Translations under genes and position numbers: made by a program | Shown here: positions 4,637 through 42,308 of the stretch, piece by piece | How positions within the stretch are numbered: position 1 is the stretch's first letter | How the letters are laid out: each line of letters begins with the position of its first letter | Source of the DNA: a virus | Length of the DNA: 61,760 bases | Reading direction: 5' to 3' (one strand) | Virus record (IMG/VR): IMGVR_UViG_3300009610_000010 | Location: 1-61,760 of that record | Notes under the pieces: generated by a model | The model's input: the letters and a program-made list of their open reading frames with translations, nothing else | The model's database searches: none | Told to the model about the DNA's origin: nothing

Positions 4637-4675
4637 AAGGCCCCCGGAGTGCCCCCCGGGGGCCTTTGCTTTTGC
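4637..4675. terminator. Rho-independent terminator between convergent operons
   Basis: Hairpin aaggcccccgg-N-ccgggggcctt followed by tgcttttgc. Sits between the end of the + operon and the end of the - operon. Confidence 0.7.
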
Positions 4676-4757: not shown

Positions 4758-5318
4758 TTACCAGTACAGGCCCACCGCCACCCCCAGCTCGCCGTTCCAT
4801 GGGTACACCGCATCGTCGTCGTCCACCCACGTGTCGCGCACCGTGTAGCGCAGCCCGGCGTACAGCGGGTCCACGTCGAACTCGAAGCCCGCTTCCACCC
4901 CCAGCGCCAGCTTGTCCGGGCCCGTGGGCACGGCCAGCACCACCGCCGCGTGGATGTACGTGGGCACCGACCCGAGGTTGCCCAGGCCGCCCTGGTACAG
5001 CCCCAGCTTGGCGAACGCCGTACCGTCCCACGGCACCACCTCCCGCTCGGCCAGGATGTCGTGCAGCGTGTACCCCAGGCCGAGCCACAGCGGATCGGTG
5101 GCCAGCTCGACCCCGGCGGTCACGCCGTTGGTCCATGCGGCATGGTCGCCCGACGTGCGATCCGAGTTGAACTCGATGTACGGATGCGTGGCCACGCCCC
5201 ACAGCTCACGCTGCGGGCGCCCGCGCTCGTCTACCTCGTCGGCCTTGTGGTCGGCCTGGGCCACGCGGGGCCCCATGAGCACCGCCAGTAGAGTGGCGGC
5301 CATGATCCAGCTTCGCAT
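4758..5318 (-). CDS. Small outer-membrane beta-barrel protein (Lom/Ail/OmpW-like moron)
   Basis: Signal peptide MRSWIMAATLLAVLMGPRVAQA; alternating beta-strand pattern; C-terminal ...VAVGLYW aromatic end; strong SD GGGAGG; flanked by terminators. Confidence 0.6.
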   Translation of the reverse strand: MRSWIMAATLLAVLMGPRVAQADHKADEVDERGRPQRELWGVATHPYIEFNSDRTSGDHAAWTNGVTAGVELATDPLWLGLGYTLHDILAEREVVPWDGTAFAKLGLYQGGLGNLGSVPTYIHAAVVLAVPTGPDKLALGVEAGFEFDVDPLYAGLRYTVRDTWVDDDDAVYPWNGELGVAVGLYW

Positions 5319-5333
5319 CGTTACCTCCCATCT

Positions 5334-5367
5334 GTGAAAAAATGGCGCCGCCCGTATTTAGCGGGCG
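5334..5367 (-). terminator. Rho-independent terminator overlapping the stop of the membrane-protein gene
   Basis: On the - strand: CGCCCG-ctaaata-CGGGCG followed by ATTTTTTCA. Confidence 0.5.
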
Positions 5368-5867
5368 CGCAACGAGCCCTCGCGAGCACGACCGAACCAG
5401 CGCGTGAGCGTGGCACCGACAAAGGCCAGGATTTGCGCCACGATGAAACTGCGCATGCCGGGGAAAATCGTGTCGCTCGTGGCCTGCAGGTCGGGCACCG
5501 GAATGGGCACCCCCGCGCCCAGGCTGTCCACCTGGGCCCATGCGGCCCGTGCCGCCAGGGCCAGCCCCACTACCGCCCCCATGATGAGCACGCTGCGCAC
5601 CGCCACGGCGCTGGGGCGCAGCGGGGGCTTCACCAGGTTGCTCATGGCCCAGCCGCTGGTCAGCGCTGCATACACCAGCGCCAGCTGCAGGTTGAAGGCA
5701 TCCCAGTCGAGCGGCGTGATAAGAACCACCGCCAGCACGATGCCAAACGCCACCCCCCACAGCAGCACCGGGCGCAGGCGCTCGGGCACCCACCGATTGA
5801 TGAACTCCTGCACCGGGCTGCCCAAGCCAAACAGCAGGAACACCCAGCCGGGAATGTACTCATTCAT
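5358..5867 (-). CDS. Multi-pass membrane protein (169 aa), function unknown
   Basis: Several hydrophobic helices. ATGA overlap with the upstream methyltransferase gene. Confidence 0.6.
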   Translation of the reverse strand: MNEYIPGWVFLLFGLGSPVQEFINRWVPERLRPVLLWGVAFGIVLAVVLITPLDWDAFNLQLALVYAALTSGWAMSNLVKPPLRPSAVAVRSVLIMGAVVGLALAARAAWAQVDSLGAGVPIPVPDLQATSDTIFPGMRSFIVAQILAFVGATLTRWFGRAREGSLRAR

Positions 5868-6502
5868 ATGACCTCCACACGGGGCCTCCGAAACAGAATC
5901 GCATTGCCCCATTGCTGGTGCAACTCGTAGCCGGCACCCTCCTGCGCCCACGCGCTCTGCACCCCAGGGCCAAACTGTGGCCACCAGTCGTCGAGCAACA
6001 ACCACGTGGGCTGCAACGCCCGCGCCAGGCGCAGGTCACTAGCCACCGTGTCGTGATCGTGACCACCGTCGATGAACATGAGGTCGGGCCCGGCGCCCAG
6101 GGCCATCGCAACGGCCGTCGCCGACAACTGGCGCGAGTCGGTGTTGATGAAAAAGAACCGCCCCGGGTGCCGCCGCTGCACCACCGTGACACCAGCCAAG
6201 GCCGATGGATTGGCTGTCCAATCGACCGACACCACCCGGCGAATGCCCGGCGCCAGCCCCAACAACATGCTGGCACTGCACCCCGCGCCGAAGCCGATTT
6301 CAACAACGTGCTCGGGCTGGGCCATGGCCAGCACCGCCTTGAAAAAGAACAGGCTGTGCGCCTCGCTGCCATACATGGCATCGCGCGGCAGGCCGTAGGT
6401 CAGCTGGGCATACTCCTCGGCATCGGCGACCGAGTGCCGGCGGTACTCAGCCACCTGCTCGTCGGTGGCCGTGGGCTGGCTGTCGTAGTCTCGCGCGCTC
6501 AT
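5864..6502 (-). CDS. Class I SAM-dependent methyltransferase
   Basis: Motif I VVEIGFGAGCS; MFIDGGHDHD (CmcI/O-MT-like); ATGA overlap with the upstream gene. Confidence 0.65.
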   Translation of the reverse strand: MSARDYDSQPTATDEQVAEYRRHSVADAEEYAQLTYGLPRDAMYGSEAHSLFFFKAVLAMAQPEHVVEIGFGAGCSASMLLGLAPGIRRVVSVDWTANPSALAGVTVVQRRHPGRFFFINTDSRQLSATAVAMALGAGPDLMFIDGGHDHDTVASDLRLARALQPTWLLLDDWWPQFGPGVQSAWAQEGAGYELHQQWGNAILFRRPRVEVI

Positions 6503-7095
6503 GGGTGCTGCAGCACCATGCCCGAGTGCACCGGGTCCACCGTGGCCCGCACCGGCTGGGGATGGCACGTGGCCAGGAACTCGGCCGTGGCCTCGGTGGC
6601 CCCCCGGCACCCGGGACTGCCGGGGTCGTCCAGCACCAACACCCCACCTGGTGAAAGCAGCCCCCAAAACCTGGGGAGCGCCAGCCAGTACGATCGGTAG
6701 GTATCGGCGTCGATGTGCACCGCGGCCAGCGGCACGGCCGGCACCATGGCCGGGTCGAACTCGCCCACGTGATACACCACGGCGTGGCCCACCAGCAGCG
6801 CCTGCACGGCCTCCAGGCTGGTGTCGCCAAAGTCGCCCGCCTGGTGGGCGTCGATGGACTCAACGGCGCTCGCCGGGATGCCCGCAAACGTGTCGTACAG
6901 GTGCAGCGTGCGGCCCTGCGCCAGGGCCAGGTGCGCCAGCAGGCGGGCCGAGCCGCCCCGCCACACCCCAAACTCGGCCAAGTCGCCCGGCACCGCCACC
7001 AGGGCCTGCACCTCGTCCCACAGGCGCTGCAGCTTGGGCCAGGGCGATGCCGCCACCACCGGGCTGGCGGCCAGCACCTCGTCAAACGTCGCCAC
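6499..7095 (-). CDS. TylF/MycF-like sugar O-methyltransferase
   Basis: LAEFGVWRGGSARLL motif and HIDADTYRS, typical of the macrocin-O-methyltransferase family. GTG start. Confidence 0.6.
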   Translation of the reverse strand: MATFDEVLAASPVVAASPWPKLQRLWDEVQALVAVPGDLAEFGVWRGGSARLLAHLALAQGRTLHLYDTFAGIPASAVESIDAHQAGDFGDTSLEAVQALLVGHAVVYHVGEFDPAMVPAVPLAAVHIDADTYRSYWLALPRFWGLLSPGGVLVLDDPGSPGCRGATEATAEFLATCHPQPVRATVDPVHSGMVLQHP

Positions 7096-7876
7096 GGGGC
7101 TCCGCCAGGGCCAGCCACCCCGCGGCTGCCGCGGGGTGGGGCATGGGCAGTGGGCTCAGCTCCTGGGGCGGGATGATGTCGTACGGCCTGAAACCCGTGC
7201 CCGCCTGCTGCATGTGCACCACCCTTTGGTCGGGCACGCTGTGCGGCCCCCAAAACCAGCTTTGCATTTCGATCGCCTTGGTGATCAGCGCCTGCCCACT
7301 GCGCACAAATCCATAGTGGAACAGAGTCACCCGGTCAACCATGCGGCGGTCGGGCCCGTGCGGCTCCACGATGCTTTCGGCATCGCCGCCTGCGGGCACC
7401 CCCTGCAGCCCGATGCGCGTGGGCTCGTCTGAGCAGGGTTTGAGCCGCGAGCCCAGGCTAATGTGATGGTCCAAGTCGCCATACAGGTTCAATCGCCGAA
7501 CCCTGAACGCTTGCTGTCCCCAGCCATCGGCCGCCACCAGGGCGCGCAGCGCTGTGTAGCTCGACTCGTGCAGCACCTCGTCGGCCTGAATCATAAAGTG
7601 CCACCGGGCGCGCACGAGTTCGCGCGCGGCGTTGGCCAGGATCATCAAGCGCTCGTAGTTGCCGGCCTGCTCCCACGGCACGTTGGGAAACACTCGCACA
7701 TTGCTGTGCCGTGTTTCGATCGTGCGCAACAGCGCCAGCGTGTCATCGGTCGAGTGACAGTCGAGCACCACCACGTCGTCGCACACGGGCACCAACGATT
7801 CGATCGCCGCCTCGACACAGTAATCCAGGCGCACGGCGTCACGCACAAACAGCGAGCCGCCAAGCCCCGTGCTCAT
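7082..7876 (-). CDS. GT2-like (GT-A fold) glycosyltransferase
   Basis: VVVLDCHSTDDTLALL nucleotide-sugar binding motif. ATGA overlap with the upstream gene. Confidence 0.55.
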   Translation of the reverse strand: MSTGLGGSLFVRDAVRLDYCVEAAIESLVPVCDDVVVLDCHSTDDTLALLRTIETRHSNVRVFPNVPWEQAGNYERLMILANAARELVRARWHFMIQADEVLHESSYTALRALVAADGWGQQAFRVRRLNLYGDLDHHISLGSRLKPCSDEPTRIGLQGVPAGGDAESIVEPHGPDRRMVDRVTLFHYGFVRSGQALITKAIEMQSWFWGPHSVPDQRVVHMQQAGTGFRPYDIIPPQELSPLPMPHPAAAAGWLALAEPRGDV

Positions 7877-9918
7877 GTTGGCTTCCTGGCAATAATGAGA
7901 AAGCTGTACCGCTCGGTCTGGTAGTGTCGCTCGGGCCGTTCAGCCAGTGGCACGTCGTCCACGTCCAGAACATTAACCAGGATTTCCGCATCGAAGGCAT
8001 CGGCCAGCACCTCGGCAATCATGTCCTGGGTGAAAGCGTGCTTGTGGTCGGCGTTCCATGCGTTGTCGTAGTAGTCGCGATGCGGCAAGTACAGGCCCAG
8101 CACTCCACCGGGCTTGATCGCGAGCCACCACTGCAGCAGCACCGCGCGGAAATCGTGCAGGTGCTCAAGGCAGTGGCTCGACCACACCCAGTCTAGCGAC
8201 CCAGGGGCGAATGGGAAGTCGTAGTTTAGGTCCACCTCGACCTCGGCCCCACTACCCAGCGCATCGACGCCCGTGGCCGTGGGCGTGATTTTTTCGTAGG
8301 GCCCACATCCCACATCCACCCCACGGTAGCCTACCAGGTGTGGCAGCACATGGTGGCGCACCTTGCTGGTTTCGCTCACAACAAAGAGCCTCCCCAGGGC
8401 CGACCGCACACGGCCCAGTTCGAGCGTTTCCATGCAGGCCACGTCGCCGCGCTCACACCCGCACCACTCGTACCGCGGCGGGCTGTAGCGGTGATGGCAC
8501 CCAAGGCATGGCAGGTGCTCCTGCTGCACCACGGCTAGCGTTTCATGCAAGCAGCGCATGTTGGGATCAATGGCCCCAAAGAACACCACCGCGGGCTTTT
8601 TGTATGCCTGTGCCACGTGGAACGGAGCACTGTCGATGCCCACAAACGCGGCCGACCGTTCGATCACGTTGGCCAGCTGTGGCAGCGTCAGGTCGTGCAG
8701 GTTCATATCGGCATCCATGGGCGCCGCCGGCATGCCAATGCTGATGGGCCTGAACCCACGCGCCCGCACCAGGTCGGCAATGCCGGGCCACAGGCGGGCC
8801 GGCACGTTACGCCCCGGCCAGGCGGTGGGCTGCATGTGAATGGCCACGAATGGCTCATCGGGTAACCCGGCCACATGCTCCTGCGCGTACAGTTCGGGCA
8901 CGGTGCGCGAGCTGTCGATGCGCACCAGGCTGGCCGTGTTGATGCGCGCCACGTATGCCGCCCACGCACTGATTTGTGGGGTGCCCTCGTACACACCGTC
9001 CAAGTCGTACACGTAGTCACACTCGCCCGCTTGTTCGGGCGACAGCACGCCGGCCACGTGTGGGTTGCCGGCGAAGACCTCGCCATAGCGTGTGGCCACA
9101 AAAATGCGCGCCTCCGGCCACTCATCGTGAATCAACCTGGGCAGCGGGCTGGCCATGAGCACATCACCCAGGCTGCCAGTGCGGCGCAGGCACACGCGCG
9201 CATCAAACCGGCGCACTCGCAGGTAGTAGCCCCACCGGGTGCGCAGGTTGGCGTGGGCCAGCTCGCGCGCCGGTGTCAGGTCGTACGTCACGCCGTGGCC
9301 GTTGTTGGTGGGCTCGTTCACGTGTGTCAGCGGCACATCACGCACGGCCAGCCAGTAGCCCCGCTGCCGCAGCCGTAGAGAAAAGTCGGCGTCCTCGCAC
9401 CCAAACTGCCCGTAGAACGTCGGGTCGCACAGCCCGATGCGCTTGGCCACGTCGGTGCGCACCATGAAGCAACTACCGTCGATGTACTCCAGTGGCTCGC
9501 CCACATGGCCCACCCCGTCGTCACCCAGCCGGCCGTGGGTGCCCGAGCGCCCCACCTGCGCCACGCGCTCGTGGTCAAACCCCGCGCGCAGGCCCTCGAT
9601 CAGGCCTGGCCCGGGGGTGGCGTCGTTGTCCACCGACAAAAACCACGGCGCAGTGCAGTGCTCCAGGGCGATGTTTTTGCCCTCACTGATGCCCTTGTTC
9701 TCGGCGTGGTGCAGCACGCGCACCCCGGGGTGGCTGTCGGCGACCGTGGCCAGCCACTCGGCGGTGCCATCGGTCGATCCGTTGTTGGTGATGAGCAGCT
9801 CGGTACCGGCAGGGCGGTGCTCCAGCAGCGCCGTCACGCAGCGCTGGGTGCGATCGAGTCGGTTGTGGCACAGCACACTCACACAGTATTCCCACTCGCT
9901 CACGGCTTTGCTCTCCAT
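7873..9918 (-). CDS. Three-domain fusion: GT2 glycosyltransferase + GT9 (heptosyltransferase-type) + SAM methyltransferase
   Basis: N-terminal: VSVLCHNR...LITNNGSTDGTAEWL and SVDNDA (DxD). Middle: RRTGSLGDVLMASPLPRL plus the Cys cluster CLGCHH...CGCERGDVAC. C-terminal: GVDVGCGP...LEHL...KPGGVL. Start taken at ATG 9918. Confidence 0.65.
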   Translation of the reverse strand: MESKAVSEWEYCVSVLCHNRLDRTQRCVTALLEHRPAGTELLITNNGSTDGTAEWLATVADSHPGVRVLHHAENKGISEGKNIALEHCTAPWFLSVDNDATPGPGLIEGLRAGFDHERVAQVGRSGTHGRLGDDGVGHVGEPLEYIDGSCFMVRTDVAKRIGLCDPTFYGQFGCEDADFSLRLRQRGYWLAVRDVPLTHVNEPTNNGHGVTYDLTPARELAHANLRTRWGYYLRVRRFDARVCLRRTGSLGDVLMASPLPRLIHDEWPEARIFVATRYGEVFAGNPHVAGVLSPEQAGECDYVYDLDGVYEGTPQISAWAAYVARINTASLVRIDSSRTVPELYAQEHVAGLPDEPFVAIHMQPTAWPGRNVPARLWPGIADLVRARGFRPISIGMPAAPMDADMNLHDLTLPQLANVIERSAAFVGIDSAPFHVAQAYKKPAVVFFGAIDPNMRCLHETLAVVQQEHLPCLGCHHRYSPPRYEWCGCERGDVACMETLELGRVRSALGRLFVVSETSKVRHHVLPHLVGYRGVDVGCGPYEKITPTATGVDALGSGAEVEVDLNYDFPFAPGSLDWVWSSHCLEHLHDFRAVLLQWWLAIKPGGVLGLYLPHRDYYDNAWNADHKHAFTQDMIAEVLADAFDAEILVNVLDVDDVPLAERPERHYQTERYSFLIIARKPT

Positions 9919-9976
9919 TTGAAAAGTGAGGGGGCGCAATGGCACCGCAGCACCGCTTTTTCTCTGCTCCACCACG

Positions 9977-10342
9977 TCATGGCCGAAACCACCTGAAATA
10001 GTTAAGAGCAATCGGCAGCGCGACGGCAAGGAAAACCGCCACCGCGGCAATCTTTTCCAGCGCAGCGATGCGCGTGTTCAGCTCCTTGAGGTCGGCGCTG
10101 TGCGTCTCCCTCGGCAGGTAGGCCGCCTTGTCCACCGTGGCCTGCGCGTGCGCGTGGTTCAGCTCGTCCAAACGGCGGGCCATCTCCATCGCCCGCTCGC
10201 GCTGCAGGTCGTTGTCCAGTCGGGCCGCCAGCTGCGTGGCCTTTTCCATGGCCGTGAAGCGCGCTTCGATGATCTTATCGAACGCCCCGAAGCGGAACTC
10301 CAGGATCTTCTCGAAGTATTCCTGCAACCCCACACGATTCAC
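9977..10342 (-). CDS. Coiled-coil protein with a C-terminal transmembrane anchor (holin/spanin-type lysis candidate)
   Basis: GTGA overlap start (alternative GTG at 10360). C-terminal AAVAVFLAVALPIALNYF. Positioned after the tail genes. Confidence 0.5.
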   Translation of the reverse strand: MNRVGLQEYFEKILEFRFGAFDKIIEARFTAMEKATQLAARLDNDLQRERAMEMARRLDELNHAHAQATVDKAAYLPRETHSADLKELNTRIAALEKIAAVAVFLAVALPIALNYFRWFRP

Positions 10343-10566
10343 TTTTGATTCTCCCACCACGTTGGGTCCACACGGTGGTCGATCGTGCCATCGCGCCGCA
10401 CCACAAAGTCACTCTCCGCTGGGTCACGGTTGGGCTTGTCCCGCCGGCCGATGTACCGCACCATGACATCCTTCGACTGGGCACATGCCACCCGCCACCC
10501 CAGCTCGCGCGCCCGCGGGAGGCACAACGCCACCTCGTCCAGCCCTTCGATCTGCCACCGCCCCAT
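10339..10566 (-). CDS. Hypothetical protein (75 aa)
   Basis: ATG start; operon context. Confidence 0.5.
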   Translation of the reverse strand: MGRWQIEGLDEVALCLPRARELGWRVACAQSKDVMVRYIGRRDKPNRDPAESDFVVRRDGTIDHRVDPTWWENQK

Positions 10567-10569
10567 GGC

Positions 10570-11049
10570 TCAGGTCACCGTTTCGCGGTCGATCGTTTCC
10601 TGCCCGGGGCGGCACTGCAAGTGGACATGGGGACCCGAAACATGATGGAACAGCGCCACCTGGTGCTGCTCGCCCGACTGGTAGCGCCACTTTTGGTTGA
10701 CCGCGGCCACCAGCTCGCGCACCACGCTGGGGGGCAGCGTGGGCCACGTGTCGTAGGGCTGCCCGGCGCGGTACATGCGCACGCTCAGGTCGGCGCCGCG
10801 GCACCCGCTCCACGGATCGCCCAGCACACGGGCCGCCTCATGCACGCTGCTGGCAGGCGGTGGCAGGCCAGCCTCGCGATAGATGCGTACCGTTTCGTCG
10901 TGGCTGCGCCACAGCTGGGTGACGTACACGTTTTCCTGGTGGGTGTACTCGGCCCACATCCAGTCGGCGATTTCACGCACTATGCTCCACAGCGTTGGGT
11001 GCAGGCTGGCCACGTCGTGGGCCACGTAGGAGCGTACGAACGTCAGCAT
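10570..11049 (-). CDS. Hypothetical protein; weak resemblance to LAS/M15-type zinc peptidase (endolysin candidate)
   Basis: WRSHDE..SVHEAARVLGD...GPHVHLQ could be the H..D...H metal triad, but the spacing is atypical. Positioned between the tail and lysis-like genes. Confidence 0.3.
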   Translation of the reverse strand: MLTFVRSYVAHDVASLHPTLWSIVREIADWMWAEYTHQENVYVTQLWRSHDETVRIYREAGLPPPASSVHEAARVLGDPWSGCRGADLSVRMYRAGQPYDTWPTLPPSVVRELVAAVNQKWRYQSGEQHQVALFHHVSGPHVHLQCRPGQETIDRETVT

Positions 11050-11525
11050 CAGAATGGCGTGTCCGTCGAGCGGTAGAGAAATCCGAATACCGCGCAGCTG
11101 AACGATTGCGATGCCGCCAGCAGGCTGTGACGAAGGCCGATCCACTGGAAGGTGGCTACCTGTACGCCGAGGTTCCAAGTCTCATCGTAAGTGAACCCGG
11201 TCAGCCCCGAAGCTGCGAGCGATGGAAACGCTCCGGTCCAGCTAGCACCGGTATCGAAGGAAAGTTCAAAGTCCGCTGCGGCGTTTACTCCATCCCTGGA
11301 CGAGAAGGCCGTGATCCACAACCGGTCGTACACGCTCTTTTGTGGGTTGTATGGATAATAGCCGAAGTATTGGGAGACGCCGAATATGGGCGTAGCCACG
11401 TCGAAAGCGAACTTGTAGCTCCAGATCGGCAAGGCCGGCGTGATATAGTCCGTGATCACCTGGTTCATCTTGCTCGATGCAACCGGGCGCTCCTGAAAAG
11501 CCCAAATCACCTTGGCCTTGGACAT
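11049..11525 (-). CDS. Hypothetical beta-rich virion or tail-associated protein (158 aa)
   Basis: TAATG overlap with the upstream large tail gene. Visibly lower GC than its neighbours. Ends in an aromatic residue. Confidence 0.55.
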   Translation of the reverse strand: MSKAKVIWAFQERPVASSKMNQVITDYITPALPIWSYKFAFDVATPIFGVSQYFGYYPYNPQKSVYDRLWITAFSSRDGVNAAADFELSFDTGASWTGAFPSLAASGLTGFTYDETWNLGVQVATFQWIGLRHSLLAASQSFSCAVFGFLYRSTDTPF

Positions 11526-14392
11526 TAAAACACCCCCCAGCAGTCATCATCCAGTCCGGTCTGATCGGTGTCAAGCCCGAGGTAGCCGCCGCACTCGCCA
11601 CTCACAATTTCCGAGTCCACTTCGACTAACTCCATGGCCGCCGTCAGGTCGCCCGTGATGTTGCGGTCGATCGAAACGGGCTCCGTGTAGCGTGGCCCCA
11701 CGGTGGGCACCAGGCTGTCGATGCGGAACACATCGCCCATGTCCGCTGCCAGCCGCTCGACCTTGGCTCGCACCGTGTAAATGCGCCGCGGGTCCTTGTA
11801 CCGGTCGTAAAGCGCCAGCGCAATCGACTGCATCCAGGGCAGGTTCGAACCATCGTACCCGCGGAACTGCATGGTGCTCGGGGCCGGGAAAATCTTGTCA
11901 TACTTGGCGAAGCTGTCATTGTCGGCCGCCGATGGCGAAGCAAACCCGGCGGTGAACTTATTGTTTGACTCGCTGAACGCGTGCTCCACGCTGTACTCGT
12001 TGTAAATCGGCAGGTGCGCGATCGCCAGCTCCATTAGGTCGTCCGAGCTGCAAAGCACCGGGGGCTCGTCGATCACCCGGGGCATAAACGACGCCACGCC
12101 GATGTTGCCGTTGGCCTTTTCGATGAACGAGCACCCCAGGTGCAGGGCCAGCGCTTGCACCGCGGCCAGCAGGTTGAGCGTTTCGTCAAAGGACATGCGG
12201 GCGATCGTGGGGATGAACTCTGCCGCCGGCAGCACCTGGTCGGCCGCGGTGCCCACCAGCGCGTCCAGCGAGGAGTCGATTTCCGGCGCGGTCAGGTTGG
12301 CCCCGCGCCAGTCGAGCAGCAGCTGGCGCATGGCCTGCACGGCCGTGGAGCCCGCCGCCGGTCGCCACACCGTGCGCAGGCTCGTGGTGCTGTTCTTGGG
12401 GGCGGTGCGCTCGGCCGGCGGTAGGGCCCGGGGGTCCTCCCGGATGTCCCCCGGGCGGGTGGTGTCGATCGCGATTTGCCCGCTCGTGCTGGTAAAGCTC
12501 CCGGGCACGCCGTATTGGCCTTCGCCATCGAAGCCCGTGACACTCCCAGTAATGAAAAAGCTGGGCAGCGTGATGCCATCCGGGATGGCGTCGCTGGTAA
12601 AGGTGAGCGTCCAGGTTTGGCACTTGGTGGCCAGGTTGCGCGTGCCTGGCGACTGGTTGAGCAGCGTCAGGTTGCCCAGGAACCACCCAGTGGCCGGGGC
12701 GTTGGGCACGATGCCCAGCGCCGGGCCCAGCCCCACGGCTCCGCTGGTGCTGACGATACGCCCCACGCTGTTGGCCAGCAGCGGGCGATCGAACATGGCC
12801 TGAAACCGGTCGGCAATTTTCAGGTACCCACGCCCCCTGGTGCTCTGCTCTTCCAGCACCTGGCCGATGAATCGGGTGAGGACGGTTTCGCCCATGCGCA
12901 GCGCGATGAGCACCCGCTTGCCCAGCCAGCTGGGTTCGCCAGTGGCCGGATCGCGCAGAAAGCTGTTGGGGTTGGTTTCAATGAACAGCTCGTCGGTGTC
13001 GGCAAACTCCAGGTCCGCGTCCGAAGCACGATAGTCGCGGAGCAAAATGTCCCGCTCCTGGCGCAGCGGCCGCGCCAGCGTGAGCCGACCCGAAAGGTCG
13101 AACTCCTGCGTGCCACCAGGATCGAAGATGATCGACGCGCAAAACCGGTCGAAAGGGGTGGGCGCGGGCTCACTGCCCCCGCCACTGGGTAGGCTATCGC
13201 CGCCGCTGGGTGTGGGTGGAGGTGGTGGCTCGAAGTCCACCTGGGGCCAGAGCGTGGTCACGCGCAGGATCGAGCCGCCGGCAAGGGTGCGCCCGCGCAC
13301 CCCGATAACCATGCTGCTAATTTCAAGCAGCGTCCACGGGTTGCCGGTAAACGGATTCAACTGCTCCATCGAAGCGTAAAAGTTTTGCGCGGAGTTGATA
13401 TTTGCAGCTTCCGCTGTTAGGTCCTGGAAGTTCACACATGGCGTACCACCACAGCCCACATCGCTCGACTCGGCCACGATGCGAAATCGTGCACTGAGGC
13501 CAGGGGCCGCGGGCTGCTGAGAAATCGCACAAAACTGTACGCCATTTACGATGGATGCCGCGTCGATACCGGCGTCCGCCGTGGGCTCCAGCAAAATAGA
13601 CTGGCACCGCGCCACCCCACCGGCCCCCGAAATGGCAATGTCCGTGGTGGCTCCGTCGAAGGGCCTGGCCAGTGCCTGCCAAGCGGTCGCCGCGCCGGCC
13701 ACCGCCCACACACCATCGCATGCGCCATCGAGGCTGCCGTCCACCGCCACCACGTGCCCCGGCGCCGGATAATCGACCGAGGCCACCACGGCCGCGCCTT
13801 CGAGGGCAATGTCGTCAACGGCCAGCGTGTGTGTGCCGGCGTTGTCTGTTTTGCCGATGAGCAACCTCAGCACTGGGTTGGCCGATGCGGTCGTCACGTT
13901 GGTGAACTCCTGCGTGCGCACCGCGGCACCATCGGCCCGCAGTTGCACACTAATCGTGCCGCCCGCGGCCGAATTGTAAATACCTGTGATTTCGTTCCAC
14001 GTGTTCAGTGCCAGTGGCGTGCTGCCTGCCGTGCCATCCACCGTGAGCACGCCAGTGGTGCTCATCGTGAACGTGGAAATTGTTGTGAGGCCCGCCAGAC
14101 GCATCACCATCCGACCATTGATGTCGGGGTAGGCCAGCACTTTCAGCCAAACGCGGAAGGACGCCGCGGCGAACGTGAGCGTGGTGGATGATTTGCCGTC
14201 CGCATCGAAAGCCCATGCGAGGCTGATATTGGCTGCCGTCACGCCACCATTGGTGATCACGCAGCCGTAGTCGCCGCTGCGCTTTTCGGCAGCCGCAGTG
14301 GAAAACGCCACCGCCCCGGCCACACTATCCCCGTTAAGGGAAATCAGCGCGCCGGCTTCGAACCCCTCGATGCGTGTCAGGGTGTGGGCCAT
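11525..14392 (-). CDS. Large distal tail / host-specificity-type protein (955 aa)
   Basis: Size and position downstream of the tape measure and two small distal tail genes. Confidence 0.6.
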   Translation of the reverse strand: MAHTLTRIEGFEAGALISLNGDSVAGAVAFSTAAAEKRSGDYGCVITNGGVTAANISLAWAFDADGKSSTTLTFAAASFRVWLKVLAYPDINGRMVMRLAGLTTISTFTMSTTGVLTVDGTAGSTPLALNTWNEITGIYNSAAGGTISVQLRADGAAVRTQEFTNVTTASANPVLRLLIGKTDNAGTHTLAVDDIALEGAAVVASVDYPAPGHVVAVDGSLDGACDGVWAVAGAATAWQALARPFDGATTDIAISGAGGVARCQSILLEPTADAGIDAASIVNGVQFCAISQQPAAPGLSARFRIVAESSDVGCGGTPCVNFQDLTAEAANINSAQNFYASMEQLNPFTGNPWTLLEISSMVIGVRGRTLAGGSILRVTTLWPQVDFEPPPPPTPSGGDSLPSGGGSEPAPTPFDRFCASIIFDPGGTQEFDLSGRLTLARPLRQERDILLRDYRASDADLEFADTDELFIETNPNSFLRDPATGEPSWLGKRVLIALRMGETVLTRFIGQVLEEQSTRGRGYLKIADRFQAMFDRPLLANSVGRIVSTSGAVGLGPALGIVPNAPATGWFLGNLTLLNQSPGTRNLATKCQTWTLTFTSDAIPDGITLPSFFITGSVTGFDGEGQYGVPGSFTSTSGQIAIDTTRPGDIREDPRALPPAERTAPKNSTTSLRTVWRPAAGSTAVQAMRQLLLDWRGANLTAPEIDSSLDALVGTAADQVLPAAEFIPTIARMSFDETLNLLAAVQALALHLGCSFIEKANGNIGVASFMPRVIDEPPVLCSSDDLMELAIAHLPIYNEYSVEHAFSESNNKFTAGFASPSAADNDSFAKYDKIFPAPSTMQFRGYDGSNLPWMQSIALALYDRYKDPRRIYTVRAKVERLAADMGDVFRIDSLVPTVGPRYTEPVSIDRNITGDLTAAMELVEVDSEIVSGECGGYLGLDTDQTGLDDDCWGVF

Positions 14393-22349: not shown

Positions 22350-22505
22350 TCACCGTCCTCTTGGCCCGCGGCTTTTCACGGGCTGCGCGGGCTGCCGATA
22401 CAGTGGAAACCGATCATCGTTGCTGCCAGCGCACAGCGCTGCCGCCACTATGCCGGCGAAAAAGCCCAGGAACAGGCCGATCAACAACGCCACCCATGGA
22501 GTCAT
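22350..22505 (-). CDS. Small single-pass membrane protein (51 aa)
   Basis: ATGA overlap with the fibre-gene stop. MTPWVALLIGLFLGFFAGIVAAAL. Confidence 0.45.
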   Translation of the reverse strand: MTPWVALLIGLFLGFFAGIVAAALCAGSNDDRFPLYRQPAQPVKSRGPRGR

Positions 22506-25500
22506 AGGGGCACCCCCTCGAAAGTGTCCACCACTGCGCCACTGCCACCGCCACCGGTGGGCGTGCAGGGCGGGTCGCACGCTTCGACGTGGCTGCGCAT
22601 GCGTCCACCGTTGAGCGTGGCGGGCAGGCGCGTTTGCAGGTTGTCCAGGTCGGCCTGGGCCACCGCCATAGCCGCGAGGATGTCGTCGATTAGGTTCTGG
22701 TTGGCCCCCGCCGAGCCAGCAACCAGGTGCCCGGCCAGCCCCTCGTCCCACACTGCAGCAGCAATCACCGCGGCCGATGCCCCACTGCCGGCGTTGTTCA
22801 GGGCCTCACCGGTCGAGCCCACCGCGAGGTGCCCGGCGAGCGGCTCGTTCCACGTTTGGTCTACGATCTCATCCACGGCATCAGTAGCGATCGCATCGGC
22901 GTCAATCGCCCCCGTGGCAATCACTGCCGCGGTGATCGTTCCAGCGTCCATCGCTTCCACGTGCGAGCGCATGCGCCCGCCCACGAGAGACGCCGGTAGC
23001 CTGGTCTGAATGTTGTCCGTGTCGGCCTGGACCCCGGCGATTGCCGTTTCGAGCGTGCCCGTGCCAGTAGTCGGAGCGACCGATCCGGTGACGCCGAGCG
23101 CCTGCCGAATCTGATCCCGCTCGCCTGCCGTCCAATCGGTTGCCCCCGAAGCTGCGGCCGTTCCGATTGCCGTCCGGAGAATCGAGTAATCATTCGTCGA
23201 GATCGCCTGCGTGAAGGCGGGATCGACCGTGAGCGTATCGGTCCCGGGATTGAAGTCCGTGATCCGCCGGATCTGACCCGAAGTCGAGCCAGAGCGGATG
23301 TAGAGGAGCGATCCCTCCCAATAGTCGGCGTCCGCCTGCGTGAGAGCGGCATCGACGAGTGTGGTAGTCGAGCCTGAATCGGCGGTTCCGGTGAAGGCCG
23401 AAATGATTTCGACCGCCGCGTCTTCGGCGAGCGCGTCGGCATCGATGGCGCCGGTGGCAATCGATGCCGACGTGATCCCGCCGGCTGCGACCGAGCCGAC
23501 CGACCCGTTGACGTTGCCGTTGACATTGCCGCCGACGTTGCCGGTCACGCTCCCGACCGAACCGCTGAGGCTCCCCTGAATGTCGGCGTTTAGGTCGAAC
23601 CCGGCACCGGCACCGACCAGCTCCATGCCGTCGCCAGCCGTCGGAGCGATCGCATGGATGCCATCGCCACTGGTTGCCCCGCCGACCGCATCGAGCCCGT
23701 GGCCGGTGGCGCCGGCTTCGAGCCGCATCCCGGCGCCAACGCCGTCGCCGAACCCGTAGATGCCGTGTCCGCTGACGCCCGACTGCCCCACGATGCCCGA
23801 GTTGCCAGCCGTGCCCCCGCCGATCGCCTGGAAGCCGTGCCCGTTGGCGTTGGCCTGGACCCGGAAGCCGTCGCCGGACGTGGCGCCCGCGAAGCCGTGG
23901 AACCCGTGCCCCGTGGGCCCACCGTTCCCCCGCACGCCAGAGCCGGTCCCGGTGCCGACCCCGAGAAGTCCATGCCCGTTGGGAGCCCCGCCCGTGCCGA
24001 CGATGCCGGCCCCTGACGTGGTCCCGCCCGTGCCGGCGATTCCGGCCTGAGTCCCGGCACCGATCGCCGAGAAGCCGGAGGCATTCCCCCCACCAGCGTT
24101 GGCAACGATGCCGGTCCCGGAGGTCGGCCCGCCCGTCGCCACGATGCCAAAGCCCGTGTCGATGCCGACGGCCTGGAAACCATGCCCGGTTGAGCCGCCG
24201 ACCGTCCCGCCTTGGGCTCGGATGCCCGCGCCGGTCCCGGTCCCCTCGGCGTAGATACCGCGCCCGTTCCCGCCGGCCGTGACGGCCTCGACCGCGTCGC
24301 CCGTAGCCGTGCGGGCACTGATGGCCGGCCCAGCGGAGTTGTCGATGTCGATCGCCCCGGCGGCCGTGGTCGAGTTGATCCTGAGCTGCTCCAGGGTCAG
24401 CTTGTTGCCACCCGTGCCGTCGAGCATCGTCTCGAAGGCATCCGCCGCCGCGGCATCGCCGGAGACGCGGACCATATCAGCCAGCACGTATTCCCCGAAG
24501 CTGCCGGCAATAACATGGCCTGCGCGTAGCTCATCCCACACCGCGTCGGCTACCTGGCCGGCGGTTGGAGCGCTGCCGGCCGCTGATCCTACCCCCGTCC
24601 GCAAGATCAAGTAATTGTTGGTGCTGATCGCCTGGGTGAAAGCCGGGTCTACAGTGATCGTGTCGGTGCCCGGGTCGAACGCCGTGATCCGCCGGATCTG
24701 ACCGACCGTACTACCGCTCGTGATGAGGACCAAGGAGTTGACCCAGTAGTCCGTGTCGGCCTCGGTGCGGGCGGCATCGACAATCGTGGTCGTCGAGCCC
24801 GAATCTGCGGTGCCCGACACGGCAGCAATGATCTCGTCGGCCGCGTCCGAGGCCAGCGCCGAGGCCGTAATTGAGTTGGCGGCAAAGCTCGCCGCGGTGA
24901 TCCCACCGGCGGCAATCGAGCCCACCGAGCCGACCACATTGCCTCCGACATTTCCAGAGAGCGAGCCCTGAATGTCGGCGTTGATGTCGAAACCACCACC
25001 AGCGCCGACGGCCTCGATCCCGTCGCCCACGTTAGTTGCAATGGCATGGATCCCATCGCCAGACGTAACCCCGCCAGCAGCGTTGATCCCGTGGCCGGTG
25101 GTCCCGCCCTGCGCTTCGATGCCGTGGCCTACGCCATTGCCGAGCGCGCGTATGCCCGATGCGCCGCCCTGACCGAGCGCGCGCATGCCTTCGCCGCCTC
25201 CCACCGCTCCTGTGGCGAGGATCCCAACGGCCGTTCCGACGCCTCCAGCAATGGCATTGATCCCGTTGCCCGAGCTAGCGTCGGCGCGGATTCCGTCGCC
25301 CGACGTGGCGCCGGCCGAGGCCCGAATCCCGTTCCCGTCATCGCCACCTATGGCGTTGATCCCATCGCCAGTCCCGTTTCCGAACGCAATGATACCGGCG
25401 GTGCTGAGCCCGCCACCCTCGGCTTGGATGCCGTTGCCTGCGGATCCACCGATCGCGCGAAGGCCGGGGAAGTTCACGTTTCCGATGGCGGCTATCCCGC

Positions 25501-26419
25501 AGCCAGTCGTCCCTCCATCGCGTCCCTGAGCGCGAATCCCGTCGCCGTCCCCGGTGGTCGAGAACATGGCTCCATGCCCGCTCAACACGCCCCCGGTCCC
25601 GTTGAGGCCATGCCCGGTCGCTCCTGCGGCGGCATTGATACCGCTTCCGGATCCGTCGCCAACGGCACTGATGCCATGACCACCGCCCGCGGCGATGAAG
25701 CTCGCACCATTCCCCGTGGCGCCTCCAGTCCCGAGGACTCCGGCTCCGGAGCCCGCCCCGGCGGCGGCGATCCCTCGGCCGTTGGTCGCGCCGCCCGCGG
25801 CGTTGATCCCGTCGCCGTTGGTCGCGCCGCCCGTCGCGATGAGCCCGTGACCGGAGCCCTGGCCCGTGACCGCGAGCCCGCTGCCACTACCCCCGGTCGA
25901 GACGAACTCGCCCGCGACCCCGCTGGATGTGCGCGCCGAGAAGGCAGGCCCGGTTGAGTTGTCGATGTCGATGGCGCCGCCCGCGGCCGACGAGTTGACG
26001 CGCAGCTGTGCCACCGTGAGCACGTTGCCGCCCGTGCCGTCGAGCATCGTTTCGAGCGCATCGGCGGCTGGCGCGTCGCCCGAGATTTGCACCACGTTCG
26101 AGGCGACAGCCGACAAGCCAAGGCTTACGCCGTCGTGCGGATTTGAATTCGTCGTAACGAAATTGGCGCCGACCGGAATGGACCCGATAGCCGTGAAGAT
26201 ATAGCCTACGTGGTCGCCGTTGGTGTCGGCAGCACTCGGGTCGAACCTATACTGACCGAGGCCCATTTCGGTCACGGTGCCCGTGGCCGCGGCCTGCGCT
26301 CCGCCGTCGATCGAGCGATTCACGTTGGGGCTCAAGCCTGTGACGCCGGCACCCGTCGTGGTGCTGATCATCACGAAGAATACGCGCTGACCGGCGACGT
26401 TCTGGCGCAGTGTGCTCAT
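22502..26419 (-). CDS. Giant Gly-rich repeat fibre/decoration protein (1305 aa) with two duplicated ~430-500 aa modules
   Basis: Dozens of ~10-aa GGxTxGxGIxA-type units. Module 1 is roughly aa 111-608 and module 2 roughly aa 651-1083. The C-terminus has a duplicated D-N-I/L-QTRLPA..GGRMRSHVEA motif. Confidence 0.75.
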   Translation of the reverse strand: MSTLRQNVAGQRVFFVMISTTTGAGVTGLSPNVNRSIDGGAQAAATGTVTEMGLGQYRFDPSAADTNGDHVGYIFTAIGSIPVGANFVTTNSNPHDGVSLGLSAVASNVVQISGDAPAADALETMLDGTGGNVLTVAQLRVNSSAAGGAIDIDNSTGPAFSARTSSGVAGEFVSTGGSGSGLAVTGQGSGHGLIATGGATNGDGINAAGGATNGRGIAAAGAGSGAGVLGTGGATGNGASFIAAGGGHGISAVGDGSGSGINAAAGATGHGLNGTGGVLSGHGAMFSTTGDGDGIRAQGRDGGTTGCGIAAIGNVNFPGLRAIGGSAGNGIQAEGGGLSTAGIIAFGNGTGDGINAIGGDDGNGIRASAGATSGDGIRADASSGNGINAIAGGVGTAVGILATGAVGGGEGMRALGQGGASGIRALGNGVGHGIEAQGGTTGHGINAAGGVTSGDGIHAIATNVGDGIEAVGAGGGFDINADIQGSLSGNVGGNVVGSVGSIAAGGITAASFAANSITASALASDAADEIIAAVSGTADSGSTTTIVDAARTEADTDYWVNSLVLITSGSTVGQIRRITAFDPGTDTITVDPAFTQAISTNNYLILRTGVGSAAGSAPTAGQVADAVWDELRAGHVIAGSFGEYVLADMVRVSGDAAAADAFETMLDGTGGNKLTLEQLRINSTTAAGAIDIDNSAGPAISARTATGDAVEAVTAGGNGRGIYAEGTGTGAGIRAQGGTVGGSTGHGFQAVGIDTGFGIVATGGPTSGTGIVANAGGGNASGFSAIGAGTQAGIAGTGGTTSGAGIVGTGGAPNGHGLLGVGTGTGSGVRGNGGPTGHGFHGFAGATSGDGFRVQANANGHGFQAIGGGTAGNSGIVGQSGVSGHGIYGFGDGVGAGMRLEAGATGHGLDAVGGATSGDGIHAIAPTAGDGMELVGAGAGFDLNADIQGSLSGSVGSVTGNVGGNVNGNVNGSVGSVAAGGITSASIATGAIDADALAEDAAVEIISAFTGTADSGSTTTLVDAALTQADADYWEGSLLYIRSGSTSGQIRRITDFNPGTDTLTVDPAFTQAISTNDYSILRTAIGTAAASGATDWTAGERDQIRQALGVTGSVAPTTGTGTLETAIAGVQADTDNIQTRLPASLVGGRMRSHVEAMDAGTITAAVIATGAIDADAIATDAVDEIVDQTWNEPLAGHLAVGSTGEALNNAGSGASAAVIAAAVWDEGLAGHLVAGSAGANQNLIDDILAAMAVAQADLDNLQTRLPATLNGGRMRSHVEACDPPCTPTGGGGSGAVVDTFEGVPL

Positions 26420-28229: not shown

Positions 28230-28477
28230 TAGCCATCCGTTGTGTCATCGATCGGCGGCGTCGAAGCCACCGGCGCCGTTACATACCCTTGTGGCAAGAC
28301 CGGCACCCACTCGTCATCCTCGGTCTCGCGCCAGAACACCTTAAGGTTCGGCGGCACGCTTTGTGTGTCGGCCGCCACCATGAGGAAAGGCCCGTCCTCC
28401 TGGTCCGAGCTGTTTACTAGGTCGGCGATCAACTCGAAGGCTTCTGCCCAGGTCACCATGTGCTTTGCTCCCTTCAT
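28229..28477 (-). CDS. Hypothetical acidic protein (82 aa)
   Basis: TAATG overlaps at both ends. Confidence 0.5.
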   Translation of the reverse strand: MKGAKHMVTWAEAFELIADLVNSSDQEDGPFLMVAADTQSVPPNLKVFWRETEDDEWVPVLPQGYVTAPVASTPPIDDTTDG

Positions 28478-29616
28478 TAATTGGCCTCTGCCAGGGCGCC
28501 AAACTGCACCGGCTGCCATGCCGGCGCATCGGCTGGTGCGGCCAGCGCCGCCCGGTAGTGGTAGGGCGGTGAATGCTGGGCCATCCATTCGATCTCTTCC
28601 CACACGCGGGTGGGGGTCACGGCCACTGCGCACTTGGTTTCACCCGGTGGCAGGCCACACGTCGGCGCGTGGTAGCACGGGGCACAAGGCACACCGGCAT
28701 ACAGCGTGCGCACGTGGGTGTAGTGCACGGCCCGGGCCTCGGGCACCACCGTCGTGAAGTAGCCCACCGTGCGCACGCGCAGTGCTTCGGCCAGGTGCAC
28801 CACGCCCGTATCGGGCGTCACCAGGAAGTCCAGGCTCGACACCACTGCGATCAGGGCCGGCACGGTCAGATGCCCGGCCAAGCTGCGCACCCCGGCAGCG
28901 GCCAGGCGCGGCGTCAGCTGGTGGGCCACGTCGTCCAGCAGCACAGCGCGCATGCCGTGGTCAAAGGCCAGCTCGGCCAGGTGCTCGACGTGGCGCAGTG
29001 GCCAGTTGCGCATGCCCGACTGGCTGTGGCTGCCCACCGCGATACCCACCACCGGGCGCCCATGCTCCAGGGCGCCCGTGATGCTGCTCCCACGCAGCAC
29101 CTCGTCGGGGTGGGGCACCATCGGATACGCCCAGGCGTCGGGGGCCACGCCGTTGAGCAGGTACTTGGCGAACACCGCCAGGCGGTCGTATCGCTCGCGC
29201 CCGTCGCGCTCGCTGTAGCCGCGCAGGTCGATGCACCACTGAAAGCGCCCGTGCAGGTCGCTCAGGGGCACGGTGCGGTGCAGGAACGTGGCGTCGCGCA
29301 TCAGGGGCACAAACTCGTGGCTCGTGGCGTAGGTGAACCGCAGCGCTGGGTACCGCTGGGCCAGGGCGCGCAGCCCGGGCAGCACCATGAGCACGTCGCC
29401 CAGGCCGCCGGTGCGAATGACCGGCACCTCGGTGCCGGCGGGAGCGCGGGCCAGCCGGCTGGGGTGCGCCATTTGCAGCTCGTGGTTGGGGTCCTCGAAA
29501 CCCTGCGTCAGCAGGAACAGGTAGTCGCCATCGGGCACCACCTGCGGCTCACCCCGGCGGAAATGCCGCCCATTGTGCTGAAAGGTTAGGCTGCGGCGCA
29601 GCACGATCTCAGGCAC
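28477..29616 (-). CDS. GT9-family (heptosyltransferase-type) glycosyltransferase inside the capsid module
   Basis: VPVIRTGGLGDVLMVLPGLRAL, VVGIAVGS, LVTPDTGVVHLAEAL, and C-terminal Cys cluster CAPCYHAPTCGLPPGETKC. The start is uncertain: GTG 29616 chosen, and the open frame extends to 29718. Confidence 0.65.
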   Translation of the reverse strand: MPEIVLRRSLTFQHNGRHFRRGEPQVVPDGDYLFLLTQGFEDPNHELQMAHPSRLARAPAGTEVPVIRTGGLGDVLMVLPGLRALAQRYPALRFTYATSHEFVPLMRDATFLHRTVPLSDLHGRFQWCIDLRGYSERDGRERYDRLAVFAKYLLNGVAPDAWAYPMVPHPDEVLRGSSITGALEHGRPVVGIAVGSHSQSGMRNWPLRHVEHLAELAFDHGMRAVLLDDVAHQLTPRLAAAGVRSLAGHLTVPALIAVVSSLDFLVTPDTGVVHLAEALRVRTVGYFTTVVPEARAVHYTHVRTLYAGVPCAPCYHAPTCGLPPGETKCAVAVTPTRVWEEIEWMAQHSPPYHYRAALAAPADAPAWQPVQFGALAEAN

Positions 29617-41335: not shown

Positions 41336-41337
41336 TG

Positions 41338-42306: not shown

Positions 42307-42308
42307 TG

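Follow-up and report, generated by a model that had tools for sequence, protein, structure and literature searches.

A glycosyltransferase–methyltransferase triple fusion in a variable glyco-island of a phage late operon: a candidate system for protein glycosylation

Introduction

What do four overlapping sugar-enzyme genes near the end of a phage late operon build, and on which acceptor? The genes occupy positions 5864–9918 of the IMG/VR virus record IMGVR_UViG_3300009610_000010, whose whole stretch of 61,760 bases was analysed and is referred to below as the window. The first of them encodes a 681-amino-acid protein that combines a GT2 glycosyltransferase, a GT9 (heptosyltransferase-type) glycosyltransferase and a class I S-adenosylmethionine (SAM) methyltransferase. 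We tentatively favour, at somewhat less than an even chance, the reading that these soluble cytoplasmic enzymes, together with a stand-alone GT9 encoded in the capsid module, would build a short O-methylated glycan on proteins, probably virion proteins. The acceptor, the donor sugars, the order of the steps and the benefit are what we infer.

To our knowledge, virion glycosylation has been demonstrated only for a few actinobacteriophages and for giant viruses. Where demonstrated, it alters immune recognition and particle properties. Through the large unannotated family described here, phages of Gram-negative bacteria could join the viruses with glycosylated virions, and its fused, soluble glycosyltransferase–methyltransferase proteins could provide a natural set for glyco-engineering. 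The system is a variant of virus-encoded glycan-building systems and not a categorically new one.

Domain Composition of the Gene Cluster

An initial annotation, made from the DNA letters, had read the four genes as encoding six carbohydrate-type domains, and evidence from Pfam, family profiles, AlphaFold models and PDB structures supports every one of these assignments. All four genes are on the minus strand and show a coding-type G+C content at third codon positions (0.78–0.91). No membrane segment is present in any of the four enzymes, and the fusion has no hydrophobic segments either.

Gene 1 (7873..9918, minus strand) encodes the 681-residue fusion, which matches Glycos_transf_2 (PF00535; residues 13–122, E = 2.7e-21, 76.7 bits against a cut-off of 23.3), Glyco_transf_9 (PF01075; residues 410–477, E = 4e-8, 33.3 bits against 22) and Methyltransf_11 (PF08241; residues 567–607, E = 1e-5, 26.4 bits against 21.2). 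The AlphaFold model of the fusion is confident throughout, with a mean predicted local distance difference test (pLDDT) score of 89.6. Translation may start at the GTG at 9903, upstream of which a Shine-Dalgarno-like GGAGAG is found. The continuity of the reading frame, which the initial annotation had singled out for checking, was confirmed: assemblies of this phage come from at least eight independent samples and amount to 23 contigs, one of them 61,704 bases long, and eight samples with these 23 contigs give identical calls of 681, 264, 198, 212, 169 and 186 amino acids for the fusion and the five genes that follow it. Since the calls are identical in independent assemblies and full-length homologues of the fusion exist at 95, 81, 73 and 64% identity, a frameshift artefact is excluded.

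Conservation within the family was read from an alignment of 29 sequences with 28–95% identity. In the GT-A (GT2) domain (approximately residues 11–235; 9214..9888, minus strand), D99, D176 and D178 are invariant and N98 is nearly so; N98-D99 form a DxD-type motif and D176/D178 an ED motif. Relatives of this domain in the PDB are chondroitin and heparosan synthases, 6p61, polypeptide GalNAc-transferases and SunS, and its structural matches include a Leptospira GT2. The C-terminal class I SAM methyltransferase domain (approximately residues 516–681; 7876..8373, minus strand) carries VDVGCG as its motif I, a sequence that is conserved in the triple fusions, and has its closest phage matches in cyanophage type 11 methyltransferases. 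The GT9 domain that lies between these two is treated in the next section.

Gene 2 (7082..7876, minus strand, 264 amino acids) encodes a second GT-A protein. Its Pfam match to Glyco_tranf_2_4 (PF13704; E = 2e-5, 25.4 bits) falls under the cut-off of 27.5; a family profile built from 13 sequences retrieved GmaR from the PDB (E = 2.6e-10, profile positions 12–195), followed by the ThuS-like 7msk (E = 6e-5) and SunS (E = 3e-3), which are peptide S-glycosyltransferases. On this profile evidence the GT2-like assignment holds. GmaR is the flagellin O-GlcNAc transferase of Listeria.

Gene 3 (6499..7095, minus strand, 198 amino acids) is a TylF/MycF-type sugar O-methyltransferase (TylF, PF05711; E = 1.4e-17, 64.3 bits against a cut-off of 23). 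It matches 5i10/4cdz, NovP and MycF in the PDB, and its GVWRGG(S) sequence and metal-site IDADTY align with the motifs of 5i10. The identity of gene 4 (5864..6502, minus strand) as a further SAM methyltransferase was upheld by a Methyltransf_24 match (PF13578; E = 5.6e-8, 34.1 bits against a cut-off of 26.3), and its start was corrected from 6505 to 6502, which gives a protein of 212 amino acids and an ATGA overlap with the stop codon of gene 3. ATGA overlaps also join gene 1 to gene 2 and gene 4 to the fifth gene, which encodes a membrane protein, and genes 2 and 3 overlap by 14 nucleotides. No promoter-like site was found inside the cluster, whose genes are translationally coupled to the late operon.

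TylF-type enzymes are known best from antibiotic pathways, and their solved relatives NovP and MycF methylate antibiotic sugars; by analogy, the product of the cluster could be a modified small molecule, for instance a glycoside like those of secondary metabolism, or a modified free oligosaccharide. We consider this very improbable: the window has neither scaffold-forming genes nor genes for sugar-nucleotide biosynthesis, and the cassette is embedded in the virion modules of many phages, as described below.

The GT9 Domain Resembles TibC

For the fusion's GT-B (GT9, heptosyltransferase-type) domain (approximately residues 241–512; 8383..9198, minus strand), searching the PDB with one sequence returned only noise, and a profile search was needed. 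The GT9 family profile covers both lobes of 3tov (residues 9–67 and 195–292), WaaF and WaaC. Both Rossmann lobes of a GT-B enzyme and the G-D motif of the N-lobe are present: G251-D252 are invariant and correspond to the catalytic Asp position of WaaC and TibC, D429 and H434 in the sugar-nucleotide lobe are invariant or nearly so, and the GD... and D..H motifs align with those of WaaC and WaaF.

The Pfam and NCBIfam families matched by the GT9 proteins are lipopolysaccharide (LPS) heptosyltransferases, as would be expected of enzymes that modify the LPS of the host envelope, but the scores are far under the cut-offs of the LPS heptosyltransferase equivalogs. With the TIGR models of heptosyltransferases I, II and III, the fusion scored 24–36 bits and the stand-alone GT9 23–46 bits against cut-offs of 135–185; with the NF models of RfaC, RfaF and RfaQ, scores of 18–31 bits were obtained against cut-offs of 437–569, so that the equivalog test failed. 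No TibC/Aah model was among the NCBIfam matches. WaaC, WaaF and WaaQ, which belong to CAZy family GT9, thus share with the domain PF01075, both lobes and the two motifs, and differ from it in the sub-cut-off scores, in the fusion partners and phage structural context found here and in having no extra cysteine motif, the alignments stopping before it.

That motif, CxxC-13-C-6-C (C471, C474, H475, H476, C488 and C495; 8434..8508, minus strand), lies in the C-lobe of the GT9 domain. Residues C471, C488 and C495 are invariant and C474 is present in at least 90% of the family; once the stand-alone GT9, which carries a CxxC-5-C-8-C motif of its own, joins the alignment, C471 and C495 remain invariant. 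We regard the motif as a putative metal finger. A precedent exists in TibC, a heptosyltransferase that contains iron and acts in the cytoplasm on serines of the TibA autotransporter (PDB 4RAP, 4RB4; PMC4358343). Its iron finger, formed by C339, C342, C358 and C370 in the C-lobe, is needed for assembly and substrate recognition (PMC4358343).

In a Foldseek comparison, the GT-B domain matched TibC best (E = 7e-11, target-normalised TM-score of 0.55–0.59 over about 320 columns), with 3tov and 1psw giving similar results (300–356 columns). The GT9 family profile matches TibC over residues 214–386 (E = 1.4e-10), and TibC is the only GT9-type structure that is aligned through the region of the cysteine motif, over profile positions 119–279, versus an end at about position 222 for WaaC and WaaF. 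The likeness to TibC/Aah comprises the position of the catalytic Asp and the fold of the GT-B domain; a CxxC...C...C motif in the C-lobe may be a counterpart of the iron finger, and cytoplasmic action on a protein, putative here, is added by proposal only. The differences are also clear. The cysteines are spaced by 13 and 6 residues in the fusion and by 15 and 11 in TibC; the flattened N-terminal beta-barrel that TibC needs for activity is lacking; there is no autotransporter substrate; and the GT9 domain is fused to a GT2 domain and a methyltransferase. The stand-alone GT9 has merely about 60 additional N-terminal residues and likewise no TibC-type barrel domain.

The 2.23–2.28 Mb region of the E. 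coli H10407 genome, tried as the location of tibC, contained only a GT9 pseudogene disrupted by an insertion sequence; this pseudogene is near-universal in E. coli and is not tibC.

Considering the fusion and gene 2 together, most of the closest solved relatives glycosylate proteins or peptides: the GT9 domain has TibC, and gene 2 has GmaR, ThuS and SunS.

The Fusion Is Recurrent in Uncultured Phages

Compared with GenBank phage proteins, the fusion gave single-domain matches only, with a coverage of at most 26%. A search of 5.8 billion clustered proteins retrieved both triple fusions of 648–685 amino acids and GT2-GT9 double fusions of about 504–546 amino acids, and many of these relatives are encoded on contigs of 42–63 kb. 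In IMG/VR, at least 36 viral contigs carry relatives.

Representatives of 50% identity clusters, 1.84 billion in number, were searched, and the best 150, all with scores of at least 429 bits and E-values of at most 3.4e-123, were examined. The GT2-GT9 unit or parts of it are present in all of them. Most align over essentially the entire GT2-GT9 profile; the few exceptions are truncated proteins and giant multi-GT2 proteins matched piecewise. A hidden Markov model of the methyltransferase region identified the same triple fusion in at least 26 of these 150 best representative clusters. Most of the others are GT2-GT9 double fusions. Some members have extra fused domains: a second methyltransferase (P0067), GT2_4 (P0200), a GT1-like domain (P0096) or a radical-SAM/B12 module (P0159). 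The architecture, initially annotated as unusual, is indeed so among characterised and GenBank phage proteins; in metagenomes, where it accounts for 26 of the 150 best clusters, the description does not apply. The triple fusion is a recurrent architecture of uncultured phages and is uncharacterised.

One relative, the 1269-residue P0076 with the domain order GT9-GT2-GT9, is interrupted by an intein at residues 369–676 that includes a LAGLIDADG homing endonuclease domain. An intein within a glycosyltransferase is unusual.

Gene Neighbourhoods and Exchange of the Cassette

Open reading frames (ORFs) were clustered for 55 loci, made up of 54 related loci and the initial 30 kb of the window. The gene 2 family is the most constant partner of the fusion, being found near it in 22 of the 55 loci and mostly directly downstream. 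Other families adjacent to the fusion are TylF (13 loci), a second small family of methyltransferase size (12 loci) and Methyltransf_24 (11 loci).

The placement of the cassette varies, yet in the loci examined it is always within or bordering the morphogenesis genes. The cassette follows the tail genes in the window and in loci L001 and L043 (tail-fibre genes in the latter two), lies between the major capsid gene and the head-tail adaptor gene in the SU10-like phages L055 and L004, and comes directly after the terminase and portal genes in L042; in eight loci it is 1–3.5 kb from a terminase-like gene. Locus L043 adds a sugar-nucleotide epimerase/dehydratase. In L004, the gene that follows the triple fusion (11989–13092) encodes a 367-residue protein in which tetratricopeptide repeats (TPR) are combined with a GT9-like GT-B domain with the motifs GGYGD and VDTAVAHLAG. 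The combination of TPR and GT-B is typical of protein glycosyltransferases.

A related contig, contig_185984 (L066, 3697–9448), retains the flanks of the island, namely the tail protein and three small genes on one side and the membrane protein and a beta-barrel gene on the other. Of the sugar genes, TylF is retained; the fusion, gene 2 and gene 4 are replaced, and no GT2-GT9 fusion is present. The replacements are a type 11 methyltransferase, a 638-residue protein of the Methyltransf_13/14 C-methyltransferase type and three others, some of which look transferase-like by eye. Since different sugar genes are carried between conserved flanks, we view the locus as a variable, exchangeable glyco-island with fixed borders, as judged by sequence comparison.

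The Capsid-Module GT9 and a Candidate Acceptor

The initial annotation had also pointed to a GT9 gene in the capsid module (28477..29616, minus strand) as a partner of the island. The gene is real (PF01075, E = 2.3e-12, 47.2 bits against a cut-off of 22) and directly follows the major capsid gene, a placement kept in relatives L064 and L065 at about 52% identity. Independent support for the partnership comes from three metagenomic proteins, P0075, P0076 and P0031, whose GT2-GT9 unit is preceded in the same chain by a GT9 that is of one type with the stand-alone enzyme (E = 6e-21, CAPC motif in common). These GT9-GT2-GT9 fusions link the stand-alone GT9 functionally to the island; it is a likely partner of the island enzymes and possibly the initiating enzyme.

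Between the capsid module and the head-tail adaptor gene, the late operon encodes a 1305-residue protein rich in Gly, Ala, Thr and Ser (22502..26419, minus strand; 21% Gly, 16% Ala and 17% Ser + Thr). It consists of two copies of a unit of about 500 residues, each with some 16–22 repeats of about 11 residues ('GG.T.G.GI.A') followed by a conserved globular part, and its central part varies among relatives. Pfam, PHROGs and NCBIfam gave no significant match for it, the only hit being a sub-threshold Pfam STN match. Between the genes of the stand-alone GT9 and the repeat protein are three tandem paralogues of 159–165 residues (ADHAVWALWNPHSTQRIKL...; 26790–27269, 27274–27771 and 27750–28229, minus strand), which may be decoration or fibre-assembly proteins. 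The arrangement of a stand-alone GT9 near a long glycine-rich repeat protein, with three small paralogues between them, recalls the TibC–TibA pairing, and by this analogy the 1305-residue protein is a candidate acceptor, by inference only. In L064, the stand-alone GT9 still precedes two small paralogues and a very large glycine-rich protein; in L065, the genes downstream of it have been replaced.

The capsid protein (29910–31022, minus strand) ends in ...DCAQLDACATSCTAPALGAGRCNTCLNLGS, about 30 residues past the end of the PHROG capsid profile. Cysteine-rich tails are also found on the products of 18294–18839 (a tail-tube-like protein of 181 residues, ...SGTCPAS) and 18861–19463 (200 residues, ...VPCHPCGTP). 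The tail cysteines of these three virion proteins are conserved in L064 and L065, and the tails may form disulfide or metal cross-links. S-glycosylation of the capsid tail, an idea taken from the likeness of gene 2 to SunS and ThuS, was considered and rejected; the cysteines are conserved in relatives with a different island.

Proposed Pathway

In the first step of the pathway that we propose, a GT9-type enzyme, either the fusion's GT9 domain or the stand-alone GT9 encoded beside the capsid gene, would put the first sugar on Ser/Thr of a structural protein, as TibC/Aah do on autotransporters. The donor would probably be ADP-heptose supplied by the host, because the cell is Gram-negative and the window contains no sugar-nucleotide genes. 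The chain would then be lengthened by the fusion's GT2 domain and by the GT2-like product of gene 2, and the three methyltransferases (the fused class I enzyme, the TylF-type enzyme and Methyltransf_24) would cap sugar hydroxyls. Joining two transferases and a methyltransferase in one polypeptide would couple successive steps, as has been shown for the chlorovirus protein A064R. The particle could benefit in its shielding, stability or adsorption.

A protein acceptor is favoured on account of the relatives of the enzymes, their gene neighbourhoods and the lack of a membrane-bound transferase, flippase or polymerase, which speak for it over classical seroconversion. The virion is the more probable source of that acceptor because the enzymes are soluble and have intact motifs, their relatives are mostly protein-glycosylating, the cassette is placed in morphogenesis operons of unrelated phages and a partner GT9 gene has a fixed place beside the capsid gene. 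The target had been called undecidable from sequence in the initial annotation. The sequence context does lean towards a protein acceptor, probably of the virion.

Several observations weigh against this proposal. The fold scores of TibC are barely ahead of those of 3tov, an uncharacterised GT9, and of WaaF, and a short profile of the cysteine region alone did not retrieve TibC. In place of the absent N-terminal beta-barrel of TibC, a GT2 domain precedes GT9 in the fusion. With the exception of TibC, the characterised GT9 enzymes matched here act on LPS cores. The C-termini of the capsid protein and of the tail-tube protein are cysteine-rich, unlike the glycosylated tails reported in mycobacteriophages. 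The genomic context is circumstantial, since late genes can also act on the host, and the island, close to where the late operon ends, has genes for a membrane protein and an outer-membrane barrel as neighbours; this is the classical site of host-directed accessory genes.

It is possible, if doubtful, that TibC-like metal-finger GT9s enable phages of Gram-negative bacteria to heptosylate proteins of their own particles, such as the repeat protein, which would be O-methylated as well, with the island serving as a virion 'serotype locus'. This would be the first protein-heptosylation system beyond autotransporter adhesins and the first described virion glycosylation system for phages of Gram-negative hosts, present in many uncultured lineages.

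Operon End, Host Envelope and Related Phage Systems

The initial annotation had placed the cluster at the end of the late operon. It is near that end and not at the very end, since two more genes follow before a GC-rich hairpin with an 11-bp stem (4637..4666), located between convergent operons, that is the likely late-operon terminator. The first of these genes (5358..5867, minus strand) encodes a 169-residue membrane protein with hydrophobic segments at residues 30–58 and 85–111 and probably two weaker ones. A homologue with 50% identity is present in contig_185984, which has another cassette, and we take the gene to be a conserved flank of the island outside the variable cassette, as sequence comparison suggests. 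The last gene of the operon (4758..5318, minus strand) encodes a 186-residue protein with a signal peptide, predicted to be an eight-stranded outer-membrane beta-barrel. Its AlphaFold model (pLDDT 77) has eight long strands and one short one, Foldseek matches it to NspA, the OmpA transmembrane domain, OmpX and OprF, the C-terminal residue is aromatic, and the protein is about 70% identical in related phages. The lom gene of phage lambda has a comparable position in its late operon. The model suggests that the barrel gene is a host-directed accessory gene. Because the late operon encodes this predicted barrel, we conclude that the host is a bacterium with two membranes, that is, a Gram-negative bacterium with an outer membrane. 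A genome scan for the host matched only metagenome-assembled contigs of assorted phyla, which are probably binned phage DNA.

These flanks bear on a different explanation, that the enzymes modify the host envelope from its cytoplasmic face (the LPS core, another lipid-linked glycan, or surface proteins such as flagellin, pilin or adhesins) and thereby block superinfection or alter the serotype. The location of the island at the end of the operon, between a tail gene region and the conserved membrane and barrel genes, is what would be expected of such a function, as is the outer membrane of the host. The cassette swaps among relatives resemble those of surface-antigen loci, the GT2 domain has a weak, partial GtrB-like PHROG match (E = 4e-5), and flagellin, on which the top match of gene 2 acts, is a host surface protein. 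Against this, no GtrA flippase, GtrC-type membrane transferase, polymerase or acetyltransferase was found, and the enzymes are devoid of membrane segments; the 169-residue membrane protein matches no GtrA, GtrC or other family in Pfam, PHROGs or NCBIfam. Lasting conversion of a lysogen is not obviously available, as the ORFs scanned revealed neither an integrase nor a repressor, the remaining called ORFs being too small for an integrase. The placement of the cassette in other phages, between capsid and adaptor genes or behind the portal gene, also speaks against this explanation. We consider envelope modification unlikely, while still giving it real weight; if it were the function, the family would represent a new, non-Gtr route of surface conversion. 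The GtrABC seroconversion systems resemble the island in having a phage-encoded GT2 enzyme near the end of the late region, and differ in the components just listed as missing, GtrA, GtrC or any membrane-embedded transferase.

Returning to glycosylation of the virion, two known systems offer closer parallels. The nearest known design is A064R of chlorovirus PBCV-1, a likeness of architecture only. This protein of 638 amino acids combines a beta-L-rhamnosyltransferase, an alpha-L-rhamnosyltransferase and a 2-O-methyltransferase; the capsid glycan receives two rhamnoses from it, the last of which it also methylates (PMC7826918). As in the fusion, a single soluble viral polypeptide of similar size has the order glycosyltransferase, glycosyltransferase, methyltransferase and is encoded among further viral sugar enzymes. 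The proposal made at first annotation, that such a polypeptide could give a short methylated glycan, is supported and fits this design. The systems differ in that PBCV-1 is a eukaryotic giant virus and in that the second domain of A064R is not a GT9; its solved first domain is absent from the best 50 fold matches of the fusion.

The other parallel is with mycobacteriophages, and Freeman 2023 is said to describe virion glycosylation cassettes of Che8 and of Corndog/cluster O phages. According to citing papers, tandem glycosyltransferases and an O-methyltransferase of mycobacteriophages modify capsid and tail-tube proteins (PMC11600133, PMC12619734, PMC13313380). By these accounts, such cassettes are, like the island, phage-encoded and contain several glycosyltransferases with an O-methyltransferase, and they differ in serving an actinobacterial host as opposed to the outer-membrane host here. 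Their glycans, according to the same accounts, are carried on C-terminal tails, which here are cysteine-rich and conserved. Two citing papers mention neither a GT9 nor a multi-domain fusion (PMC11600133, PMC12619734).

The DNA Modification Module

The window also encodes a TET/JBP dioxygenase (41338–42306, minus strand; PF12851, E = 1.3e-18) and a TET-associated glycosyltransferase (TAGT; 40526–41335, minus strand; PF20691, E = 2e-9), and the island could therefore act on DNA: the TET enzyme would hydroxylate 5-methylcytosine, TAGT would glycosylate it, and the island enzymes would add further sugars and methyl groups. Phage glycosyltransferases do build di- and trisaccharides, including heptose, on 5-hydroxymethylcytosine (bioRxiv 10.1101/2023.12.21.572611). 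Pathways of this kind, however, are reported to form clusters, and here 30 kb separate the island from the TET module; the DNA transferases described are TarP/JGT-like GT-A or T4 beta-GT-like GT-B enzymes and not GT9 (bioRxiv 10.1101/2023.12.21.572611). A TET or TAGT homologue was found within 10 kb in none of the 54 other cassette loci, and the TAGT family matches no island protein. Extension of a DNA-linked sugar, which would constitute a new layer of DNA hypermodification, is therefore improbable in our judgement.

With a ParB-N-domain protein (42309–43187, minus strand), the two genes make up a DNA hypermodification module (40526–43187) that sits between the terminase and portal genes. The ParB-N protein is also similar to the N-terminal part of phage DNA methyltransferases, and the TET gene is kept at 60–64% identity in relatives L067 and L068. 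No cytosine methylase was identified with the TET/TAGT module.

Genome Organization

The window is a complete phage genome with a terminal direct repeat of 123 bases. A comparison of the DNA at 5000–12000 with 50,697 GenBank phage records gave zero matches. A single long late operon on the minus strand encodes, besides the capsid protein, the large terminase subunit (45995–47548), the portal (37654–39639), a Mu-F-like head protein, a protease-like protein, the head-tail adaptor (21342–22346), the tape measure protein (15372–17402) and a 955-residue tail protein (11525–14392). No endolysin, holin or spanin was recognised across the whole window.

Four small conserved genes (9977–11525, minus strand; 158, 202, 75 and 127 amino acids) lie between the tail protein gene and the island, and the 127-residue product has a C-terminal membrane anchor. 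Pfam, PHROGs and NCBIfam returned nothing for these small tail-to-island genes, the membrane protein, the barrel or the three paralogues of the head region.

A tandem array with a 12-base unit (consensus GGGACGCAGCCG; about 22 + 8 copies) occupies positions 1–92 and 61466–61729 of the window and spans the junction of the terminal repeat. The leading end of the array overlaps a small plus-strand ORF (56–343), which begins with VDAAWDAAGDAA.

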